Source: a virus
Taxonomy: Duplodnaviria > Heunggongvirae > Uroviricota > Caudoviricetes
Strand: one strand, 5' to 3'
Length of the DNA: 10,074 nt
Virus record (IMG/VR): IMGVR_UViG_648276668_000010
This document shows positions 9,601 through 10,074 of this stretch, one piece after another; position 1 is the first letter of the stretch, and every line of letters begins with the position of its first letter. The translations under genes and the position numbers were made by a program. The notes under the pieces are model-generated. The model saw only the letters and a program-made list of their open reading frames with translations. It did no database searches and was not told where the DNA came from.

Positions 9601-10074
9601 CTGCACCATTGCCTGACAGGGTCAGACTGCCGCCATCTTTAGCAAAAACCCCCACAGCCCCCGTACCGGCAAGACTGATTTTTCCGGATACATTAACATT
9701 GCTTCCGGCACCTTCCACCCAGGCACCATAGTTACGGAAACCACTACTGATACCCTTGCCGCCAACATTTATCGTACCGTCAGATTTCAACTGTCCTGCA
9801 TTGATTACCTGTAGCCCGGTGCTGTTCAGACCATTAACATTGATAATCCCGGAGTTTTTCATCCCGGAGCTATTATTTGCCAGCATGCCAACATTCAGTG
9901 CAGGTGCATCACTGTCATGACCGTCAATAGTGATATTCCCTTTATTTACCACATCAACAGTCCCGGCATCCTTTGCCAGGATTCCGTAGTTCCCCTGAGC
10001 CCCCCTGCCCAAAAAAAATAGTACCTTCATTAACGACTTTGTTTGCACCATTTTGTACTTCAATCGCAACAGAA
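3680..10074 (-). CDS. Giant AIDA-I-type (type Va) autotransporter adhesin, >2100 aa; N-terminus beyond the window end; apparent frameshift near 10000-10018
   Basis: Single 6.4 kb open frame. C-terminal ~290 aa has beta-barrel character ending in an aromatic residue (…LGIKYIF). A Pro-rich PQ linker and a pertactin-like region (…AGAWEYFLHKGNAGGTDGNWYLRSE) precede it. The passenger is Gly/Asn/Thr/Ser/Val-rich with degenerate beta-helix-like repeats. No SPATE GDSGS protease motif. Confidence 0.9.
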   Translation of the reverse strand, partial: LLRLKYKMVQTKSLMKVLFFLGRGAQGNYGILAKDAGTVDVVNKGNITIDGHDSDAPALNVGMLANNSSGMKNSGIINVNGLNSTGLQVINAGQLKSDGTINVGGKGISSGFRNYGAWVEGAGSNVNVSGKISLAGTGAVGVFAKDGGSLTLSGNGAVLFGSSDQIGFYVYGKDSAIHNTGSGVMDVSTENSTLFRIASGATFQGTADASSALTASGKNSYALIATGKSDGGVASTVTSGGMTINLTGEGATATLIEGGAQGTIESNAIINMDNASAIAGIADGNGYDISGKLINPKDKTTLLTAGAQLSSTQDKVTGYIARNGATLNNTGNIIFTGKNTVGVRVEEGAVGTNSGNITVQDGGVGLIANATQDVTTINNSGNLVLKGGDNANRTTGIKASGTTTTVNMTAGTISLQGQGAIGVEASNKGTVNLDGSAVPNFAADGSGITDQIAFRIIGDGATIKTNIAAGTLLDASGERSVLFRIEDGAKQAGSLLMKTSGTGSRGIWATGKGSNVLADAGSDFQILGAQAQGLYVTGGATATLKQGASVNLVGDGAVVAEVDGNEYALDGSITQTNTGSVITNEADISSPLNNAKGFITRNQGLLINSGNIDFTTGTDNIGVWVDNGRFENTGSRIAVNGVALFVEGEHAQITSTGGDIVAVDGEAAIKLGAGASLNLAGSGLGTIEGQKNAHGILLDTGAVGLVIDGAKINVNAAGAVGHGIENRAEIEGIQLTNTTEINVADGIGVRTSASLAKTNSGTINVDGSGIALAFQKADGSETDNNLDMSDSAGLVINLKGTGGTGIFANTKDGAVVKSGASVNVTQADGGSALVVNNAASEVVQSGNLISASLSHAVVDASKAQSFTNKGQIKAASATGTAMAFDDAVNTTVLNDSGAEIQGVVALNGGDNTFTNKGSITGTVSAKEGNNTFLFDDGSTLTGEVTAGNGNNNVTLNGKAHVDQVTAGTGKNTFTIKGEGATWNLLDGGQGDSDSLIFDNAIHTLDSVVKLQNFEHVGLKNSSLVTLKEALVLTDGGTGPGSVDIESGSELAIIPAVAGNFTFDPLLTGKGTLSARLDADTSAFEFSHNVGDQFAGTLKLGTSSFALEGLNTSGLTHAMLMSESGNITTVGSGVQQIGGLGFNGGTLIFGSVMPGDTIASNSIETSAAGTLDIRGKGTIQVTMPDEVINDIPAVDTRKNLLEQDDAQTLVTLVNAAGTVTGTGGQLQLVDENGQAISHSQTFDVTQGGEVVAQGNYDYKLLGSSDGIKGDGLYIGYGLKSLDLQGTGDKALVLTPRANAQGLQTDLGAQLTGAGDLAIEAAGQVVTLSNGGNNYTGDTLVRSGTLQMANDNVLGATGNLNVASNAVFRTNGYSQTVGVLQTETGSHIQLDSGSVLTVSGTQRQPGDDNGGVIENNVLSGEGTLAVTGSDLTVHGTNIGFTGNASLTQGALVEMNGAQGLGSQGSISFESLSDRLAIDIADGSGVSSNLSKSLSGEGSVGILNTTDLTLSGDNSNFSGEFRVQKDAALRASDEKHLGTGLIDSDGVTWLTASGNWLLKNDITGSGALVKQGAGNLIINHELTYTGDTTVENGVLIVGDDSVTRAAGATLSGSKNIHVLNGGTLSGLGTVSGQVNNQGTLASLNALSGYETAEASNFTVGSLTNTGVIRLAGGKTGNTLTVNGDYTGGGTLIINTVLGDDTSATDKLIVTGNTSGDTGVVVNNVRGQGAQTADGIEIVHVGGHSDGNFRLQNRAVAGAWEYFLHKGNAGGTDGNWYLRSELPPEPQPQPQPQPQPQPHPTPDKPVQKVYRPEAGSYIANIAAANTLFNIRMHDREGETYYTDVFTGEKKATSMWMRHIGGHNRWKDSSSQLNTQSNRYVVQLGGSIAQWTDGQDRLQLGIMAGYGNEKSSTTSSLSGYKSKGAINGYSTGLYGTWQQNDGNDNGAYVDTWIQYGWFNNTVNGEKLAAESWKSRGFTGSVEAGYTFKAGEFIGSQGSHYDWYIQPQSQITWMNVRASEHTEKNGTKVQLSGDGNIQSRLGVRTYLKGKSASDDNKAHQFEPFVEVNWIHNTRSWGVKMDNTALSQDGATNIAEVKTGVQGKLSDNLSVWGNVGVQAGDKGYSDAQAMLGIKYIF
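3683..4668 (-). other. Autotransporter translocator unit (linker plus C-terminal outer-membrane beta-barrel domain), approximate bounds
   Basis: Region after the PQ linker through the C-terminus (…NTLFNIRMHDREGETYYTDVFTGEKK… to KYIF) shows the alternating aromatic/hydrophilic pattern of autotransporter beta-domains. Bounds estimated by eye. Confidence 0.7.
4694..4729 (-). repeat. Imperfect hexanucleotide tandem repeat (CCN-CAR)x6 encoding (PQ)6 inside the Pro-rich linker PPEPQPQPQPQPQPQPHPTPDKP
   Basis: Plus strand reads CTGTGGCTGCGGTTGTGGCTGCGGCTGCGGTTGTGG; the minus-strand translation is PQPQPQPQPQPQ. Lies between the pertactin-like region and the translocator. Confidence 0.85.
4745..5100 (-). 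other. Pertactin-like autochaperone/junction region of the passenger, approximate bounds
   Basis: Sequence …GGTLIINTVLGDDTSATDKLIVTGNTSGDTGVVVNNVRGQGAQTADGIEIVHVGGHSDGNFRLQNRAVAGAWEYFLHKGNAGGTDGNWYLRSE resembles the conserved C-terminal passenger region of AIDA-I/pertactin-type autotransporters. Confidence 0.5.
10000..10018 (-). other. Homopolymer pair (C6 at 10000-10005, A8 at 10011-10018 on the plus strand) at an apparent reading-frame switch in the autotransporter
   Basis: Upstream of the tract a different minus-strand frame gives passenger-like sequence (SVAIEVQNGANKVVNEGTIFFGQG…), while the track frame gives LRLKYKMVQTKSLMKVLFF. Removing one base from either run joins the two into …NEGTIFFGQGAQGNYGILAKDAG…. 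Confidence 0.45.

Follow-up and report, generated by a model that had tools for sequence, protein, structure and literature searches.

A homopolymer frameshift in upaE at the edge of a draft contig: a probable length miscall rather than a phase-variation switch

The DNA analyzed here is a 10,074-nt stretch (the window) of the virus record IMGVR_UViG_648276668_000010, which carries on its minus strand most of upaE, an autotransporter adhesin gene of Escherichia coli, interrupted by one extra T in a run of Ts. Rather than a phase-variation switch, this extra T is, with a probability that we put at roughly 0.6, a miscall of homopolymer length close to where a draft contig ends. A miscall, which would stem from sparse or poor-quality read coverage at the edge of the contig, is favored by the position of the site at a contig edge in a gapped draft, by the absence of the eight-T allele (T8) from the nearest relatives and its rarity elsewhere, by a ±1 length change in another homopolymer of this contig, and by the precedent of artifactual frameshifts in the upaE record of strain CFT073. 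The true sequence of the strain would then probably contain seven Ts (T7) and an intact upaE. The product of the intact gene is a type Va autotransporter adhesin of 2,637 aa, in which an ESPR signal peptide precedes a long passenger and an autochaperone, and the β-barrel forms the C terminus; its expression is really turned ON and OFF by tyrosine recombinases that invert the ipuS promoter element, which lies upstream of ipuR-upaE. A preliminary description of the window had offered an assembly error, an inactivating mutation, and a slipped-strand phase-variation switch as three alternatives; the first is favored here and the second is possible, while the near-invariance of T7 and the known ipuS inversion argue against the third.

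Two minus-strand reading frames, offset by one base, meet at the tract: that of positions 10073–10019 and that of the long open reading frame (ORF) below position 10000. The frame starting at position 10073 translates to SVAIEVQNGANKVVNEGTIFFGQGGSGELRNPGKGCRDC and then encounters a TGA stop, while the frame of the long ORF translates to LLRLKYKMVQTKSLMKVLFFLGRGAQGNYGILAKDAGTVDVVNKG. The features of this region are as follows.

Positions 10011–10018, minus strand: homopolymer with the extra base, A8 on the plus strand and T8 on the coding strand; intact alleles have T7 (upaE nt 1577–1583).
Positions 10000–10005, minus strand: G6 run (C6 on the plus strand) of wild-type length, identical to strains Ecol_316 and T-HYM1 and not the site of the lesion.
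Positions 10019–10073, minus strand: last 55 nt of the native upaE frame before the tract (SVAIEVQNGANKVVNEGT...), starting at the contig edge and corresponding to approximately residues 507–525 of intact UpaE.
Positions 9954–9956, minus strand: premature TGA reached by the native upstream frame after the +1 change; the product would end at residue 546 of 2,637.
Positions 3680–10069, minus strand: long ORF of 2,129 aa representing the 3′ four-fifths of upaE, without signal peptide (from the ORF call, Pfam, and the RefSeq name).

The preliminary description had rested its call of a frameshift at an A8/C6 homopolymer pair on amino-acid composition. The frameshift is real and no longer depends on composition, as the intact UpaE proteins of Ecol_316 and T-HYM1 run uninterrupted across the site (...SVAIEVQNGANKVVNEGTIFLGRGAQGNYGILAKD...; across the tract itself, ...NEGTIFLGRGAQGNYGILAKD...), with T7 in the genes. 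The preliminary description had named homologues with the LRLKYK... reading of the long ORF as evidence that would refute it; as it had expected, homologues do not have this reading and show SVAIEV...TIFLGRGAQGNYG here. Deletion of one base from either run reopens the frame, as had been proposed; since homologues have T7 and G6, it is the T run and not the G run that is too long, such that the lesion lies in the A8 half of the pair and the C6 half has its wild-type length. In the terminal 1,075 nt of the window, the extra T is the sole difference from Ecol_316. The tract had also been placed near the 5′ end of the gene; it actually occupies nt 1577–1583 of a 7,914-nt gene (codons 526–528 of 2,637), about 20% of the way in, and together with the G run, which follows 5 nt away, it spans upaE nt 1577–1594. 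As deposited, therefore, this copy does not encode the approximately 271-kDa UpaE in one uninterrupted frame, given the +1 change at positions 10011–10018; with T8, the 546-aa product would retain the signal peptide and lose the autochaperone and the barrel.

Identification of the gene as upaE is supported by sequence, by context, and by domain architecture. By megablast, the terminal 1,075 nt matched 249 of 5,426 complete E. coli genomes, with the annotation “phase-variable autotransporter adhesin UpaE”, such that about 4.5% of complete E. coli genomes carry the locus. Identity to annotated upaE is 99.9% over 1,075 nt and 99.93% over 7,424 nt, and the CFT073 allele matches the tract region exactly apart from T7. 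In Ecol_316, where upaE is intact (7,914 nt, 2,637 aa), the gene order is dsdA-dsdX-dsdC, ipuB, ipuA, a gene for a helix-turn-helix (HTH; LuxR-type) regulator, upaE, an OmpH-family gene, tRNA-Arg, and yfdC. The scaffold from which the window derives carries a Phage_integrase gene and a gene for a GerE/LuxR-type regulator upstream of the 5′ fragment of upaE, and the arrangement of its genes is that of Ecol_316, A10, T-HYM1, and CFT073. Pfam assigned four domains to the intact T-HYM1 protein, as listed below.

Residues 1–43 of intact UpaE (T-HYM1): ESPR extended signal peptide.
Residues 2072–2101 of intact UpaE (T-HYM1): PATR repeat.
Residues 2163–2267 of intact UpaE (T-HYM1): type-1 autochaperone AC_1.
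Residues 2357–2615 of intact UpaE (T-HYM1): autotransporter β-barrel.

The last three of these domains are found in the long ORF of the window, which covers passenger, PATR repeat, autochaperone AC_1, and autotransporter β-barrel (at about 3749–4525; Pfam PF03797, PF18883, and PF12951). In uropathogenic E. coli CFT073, UpaE has been characterized experimentally as a surface adhesin of 271 kDa, and the full-length protein was detected in this strain (Battaglioli et al. 2018, mBio, PMC6083910). Its ON/OFF expression results from inversion of ipuS, a promoter-bearing element between 7-bp inverted repeats, which is inverted by tyrosine recombinases and drives the ipuR-upaE operon; frameshifts, homopolymers, slipped-strand events, and tract-length variation are not mentioned in that report (PMC6083910). 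As the characterized switch is the ipuS inversion, “phase-variable” in the RefSeq name concerns a mechanism upstream of the window and not the tract.

The position of the tract within its assembly is one of the observations that favor a miscall. The window coincides exactly with a single contig of the draft scaffold GL884220.1 (assembly GCA_000176615.2), its reverse complement being identical throughout to positions 3482–13555 of the scaffold locus that was fetched (L005).

Positions 1–10074, no strand: the whole contig, with a run of 719 N beyond position 10074 and a run of 224 N before position 1.
L005 positions 2763–3481 and 13556–13779, scaffold GL884220.1: the N runs at the two ends of the window.

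The end of the sequence at position 10074 is accordingly a contig end beside a scaffold gap and does not reflect a nearby start of the gene. The T8 run starts 56 nt from this end, which abuts the 719-N gap; the gap falls inside upaE and comprises only 31 nt in reality, by comparison with T-HYM1. The source scaffold has three gaps in a 20-kb stretch, marking the draft as fragmented, and a contig end next to one of these gaps is a low-confidence part of it. The 5′ 1.5 kb of upaE, including the part encoding ESPR, is on the preceding contig, where 2,307 nt are 100% identical to T-HYM1. A search for a further assembly of the same strain found none, the look-up giving one contig, listed for two samples. 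From the style of the accession only, our guess at the chemistry would be a 2010-era pyrosequencing draft.

A comparison with the nearest relatives points in the same direction. Two duck isolates, T-HYM1 and HYM1, have matches along the entire window, and a base-by-base comparison with T-HYM1 revealed three differences: T7→T8 in upaE, T6→T5 at positions 3558–3562, and one substitution. This substitution, at position 1966 (A rather than C on the minus strand, AA → AAA), lies in a hypothetical gene of a prophage. The T5 change affects the gene downstream of upaE, as follows.

Positions 3103–3632, minus strand: OmpH-family (Skp-like) gene downstream of upaE, with its ATG at 3630–3632 and a premature stop at 3552–3554.
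Positions 3558–3562, minus strand: T5 (A5 on the plus strand), the second length change, 23 codons into the OmpH-family gene; T-HYM1 and Ecol_316 have T6.

The T5 frameshift, after codon 23, splits the hydrophobic N-terminal signal/anchor segment (MSSVMKFSVVNAVVLLLLIVLTGVF) from the mature domain. T5 was found in one of 250 complete genomes (LR778140, unrelated), and the resulting 150-aa product (ORF 3103–3555, minus strand) is recorded from the GL884220.1 contig alone. Relative to T-HYM1, there are thus two ±1 homopolymer indels and one substitution in 12.4 kb, and two such indels per substitution, each breaking a conserved ORF, look like sequencing error rather than divergence.

These same observations bear on the possibility, to which we give well under even odds, that the strain carries a genuine sporadic +1 replication-slippage mutation and hence a upaE null allele. 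The mutant would produce a 546-aa N-terminal part with the signal peptide and without autochaperone and barrel, and the downstream ORF would have the barrel and no signal peptide, such that the cell surface would lack the adhesin in either orientation of ipuS; T6→T5 in the OmpH-like gene would be another real lesion, the locus being in decay and the lineage perhaps deficient in mismatch repair. The stop at residue 546 severs ESPR (1–43) from AC_1 and the β-barrel, in line with a null allele. Two frameshifts per one substitution over 12.4 kb are improbable in a repair-proficient strain, a judgment that derives from E. coli mutation spectra and is not a computed value, and a distance of 56 nt separates the site from a contig end of a draft with gaps; both observations argue against a real mutation.

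The distribution of tract lengths across complete genomes bears on whether the tract is a switch. Short queries spanning the tract as exact variants, from T6 to T9 only (82 nt for the T7 query), were compared with the complete E. coli genomes that contain the segment (n = 244).

T7: exact match in 162 of 244 complete genomes.
T8: exact match in 1 of 244 complete genomes (strain A10).

Neither T6 nor T9 matched any of the 244 genomes exactly. Among the matches to the T7 query that were not exact, all 20 of an evenly spaced sample still span 82 nt, which indicates substitutions and not length changes. The tract length in related strains, for which the preliminary description had called for a comparison, is T7 in the nearest relatives and in essentially all of the 244 genomes, with T8 in a single one. 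A programmed slipped-strand (contingency) switch at the T7/G6 pair, acting as a translational ON/OFF control layered on the ipuS inversion, is very improbable on this distribution, with T8 missing from 243 of 244 genomes and length nearly invariant between isolates. In favor of such a switch are the presence of two homopolymers 5 nt apart within a surface adhesin gene, and ±1 variants of both tracts in public assemblies (T8 in two assemblies; T6, G5, and G7 on 8 contigs each). However, T7 is short and ordinary for this gene, in which we counted three 7-nt runs (at nt 78, 603, and 1577) and five G6 runs; the tract lies 1.6 kb into the gene and outside the signal-peptide region; many of the variant fragments come from multiply frameshifted assemblies; and the characterized switch of the operon is the ipuS invertible promoter, with no length variation reported (PMC6083910). 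A version in which the T7/G6 pair represents a low-frequency slippage hot spot selected as a second translational OFF switch, with the rare T6, T8, G5, and G7 alleles as snapshots of it and leaky slippage on U8, seems highly unlikely as well. In known contingency loci, tract length differs widely between isolates.

Protein collections were also searched for products of the variant tracts. The clean 546-aa product of T8, looked up exactly in two strain backgrounds, was absent from about 15 billion proteins; truncated products of T6, G5, and G7 were each found on 8 contigs, counts that have no denominator, as the intact UpaE of T-HYM1 likewise had no match in this exact look-up; nor had the 2,090-aa product of the window, which, being a plain translation of a GTG start with V as first residue, could not match. 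When the C-terminal 109 aa of the T8 product served as the query against about 5.8 billion protein clusters, homology to seven short, multiply frameshifted fragments was all that emerged. Counting of alleles from this tail search was rejected, as even intact UpaE was not returned. The fragments, with several frameshifts each at and near the runs, show that noisy assemblies frequently contain miscalls at both tracts. Short upaE ORF fragments with several frameshifts each (P0001–P0005; e.g., MLSLQG..., ...TIFFFWAG..., and ...TIFLGRGLRGTTESW) look like products of uncorrected long-read assemblies; one multiply frameshifted fragment, with 18 member sequences, originates from an NCBI contig of 5.07 Mb.

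Other records of disrupted upaE genes include both apparent artifacts and independent losses. Between the window and A10, the sole complete genome in which T8 was found, there are 57 substitutions, such that the T8 of A10 is independent; recurrence of T8 in this background counts in favor of a real null allele, as do the T6, G5, and G7 alleles on a few public contigs each. Within 19 kb, A10 also shows a +GC insertion at an earlier point of upaE and, downstream, two G5→G6 insertions, a pattern that suggests either an assembly prone to indels or a locus in decay. That both assemblies with T8 have further homopolymer indels close by weighs against a real mutation and is consistent with a miscall. 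The A10 indels are at L002 positions 9169–9170, 17260, and 17380; the +GC follows a G6 run (at about nt 710), and the two G5→G6 insertions are near tRNA-Arg. After the +GC, A10 translation stops at nt 741; the +2 and the +1 of T8 add up to +3, and the frame is restored after the tract. We considered a compensated frameshift with an open alternative frame in A10 and rejected it, as the open middle segment is in the native frame and translation stops at nt 741.

In the 2002 record of CFT073 (NC_004431.1), upaE is flagged “frameshifted” on account of two 1-nt insertions and three Ns in about 130 nt (upaE nt 7010–7137), while the gene is intact (7,950 nt) in the 2020 assembly of this strain (CP051263). 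This intact gene, together with detection of the full-length protein, indicates that database frameshifts in upaE can be artifacts. In IAI39, upaE is truncated by an IS3-family insertion (L009 positions 4459–5082), an independent route of loss; this disruption and the presence of the locus in just about 4.5% of complete E. coli genomes, and hence its dispensability, favor a tolerated null allele.

More improbable still would be a T8 that is real and leaky, in which RNA polymerase slippage on U8 or a +1 ribosomal slip would restore the frame and yield low levels of full-length UpaE. Transcriptional slippage in E. coli is known to occur at A or T runs, and, judging from the codons alone, a +1 slip of tRNA-Phe at the first UUU of AUU-UUU-UUU-GGG would yield the wild-type ...IFLGRGAQ.... 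Such a mechanism would presuppose a real T8; efficient slippage is generally reported for runs of at least 9, the allele is conserved in no lineage, and no stimulatory element was seen, with no dedicated search made for one.

Several observations weigh against the miscall that we favor. The miscall is inferred and was not seen directly, and homopolymers are also natural hot spots of real replication slippage, such that position in a homopolymer does not by itself discriminate. The T5 indel lies in the middle of the contig and not at its edge, and the same allele is present in the unrelated complete genome LR778140. The clean T6, G5, and G7 products are probably a sign that some ±1 events are real, and the IS3 disruption in IAI39 means that loss of the gene is tolerated.

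Positions 1–2665 represent a prophage arm with torI, a PAPS-reductase family gene, yfdR, and part of yfdQ (T-HYM1 annotation); its junction with the chromosome lies at 15 nt left over from the 3′ end of tRNA-Arg (2651–2665). ARAGORN found no intact tRNA in the window, and strains such as Ecol_316 have an uninterrupted tRNA-Arg at the position of this junction. The prophage sequence beyond the window (L005 positions 13780–20453) was considered as a source for an indel error rate and proved uninformative, given about 2.3% real divergence from T-HYM1.

The case serves chiefly as a warning: a face-value reading of the deposited sequence would label the strain as UpaE-negative, or would suggest a new slippage switch in a gene already named “phase-variable”. 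If the frameshift is real, the strain is a natural upaE null mutant of modest interest, the locus being accessory and lost by other means in other strains.

Among known systems, contingency loci (e.g., the poly-G and poly-C tracts in adhesin and lipooligosaccharide genes of Neisseria, Haemophilus, Campylobacter, and Helicobacter) resemble the upaE tract in that a mononucleotide run lies within the coding sequence for a surface adhesin and translation is turned off when the run changes by ±1. The upaE tract differs from them in being 7 nt long, essentially invariant in 244 genomes, and no longer than other runs in the gene, in belonging to a host species that is mismatch-repair proficient, and in lacking their population signature. 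The 2002 CFT073 record NC_004431.1 is similar to the window in that single-base indels break upaE while close relatives have it intact; however, the CFT073 errors are outside homopolymers, stand beside Ns in a low-quality stretch, and are gone in a later assembly, while the error in the window is an inferred one. With UpaE of CFT073 (PMC6083910), the window shares the gene and the locus (dsdCXA, ipuB, ipuA, an ipuR-like HTH regulator, upaE, an OmpH-like gene, and tRNA-Arg), and DNA 99.9% identical to annotated alleles; the domains of the gene are ESPR, PATR, AC_1, and the β-barrel. The window copy differs in the extra T, at nt 1577–1584, and is not a single ORF; the published switch, a promoter inversion upstream of ipuR, lies outside the window and is unrelated to the tract. 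The gene and its function, like the switch that truly regulates it, are known from earlier work, and the finding is ordinary whether the extra T is a miscall or a mutation.

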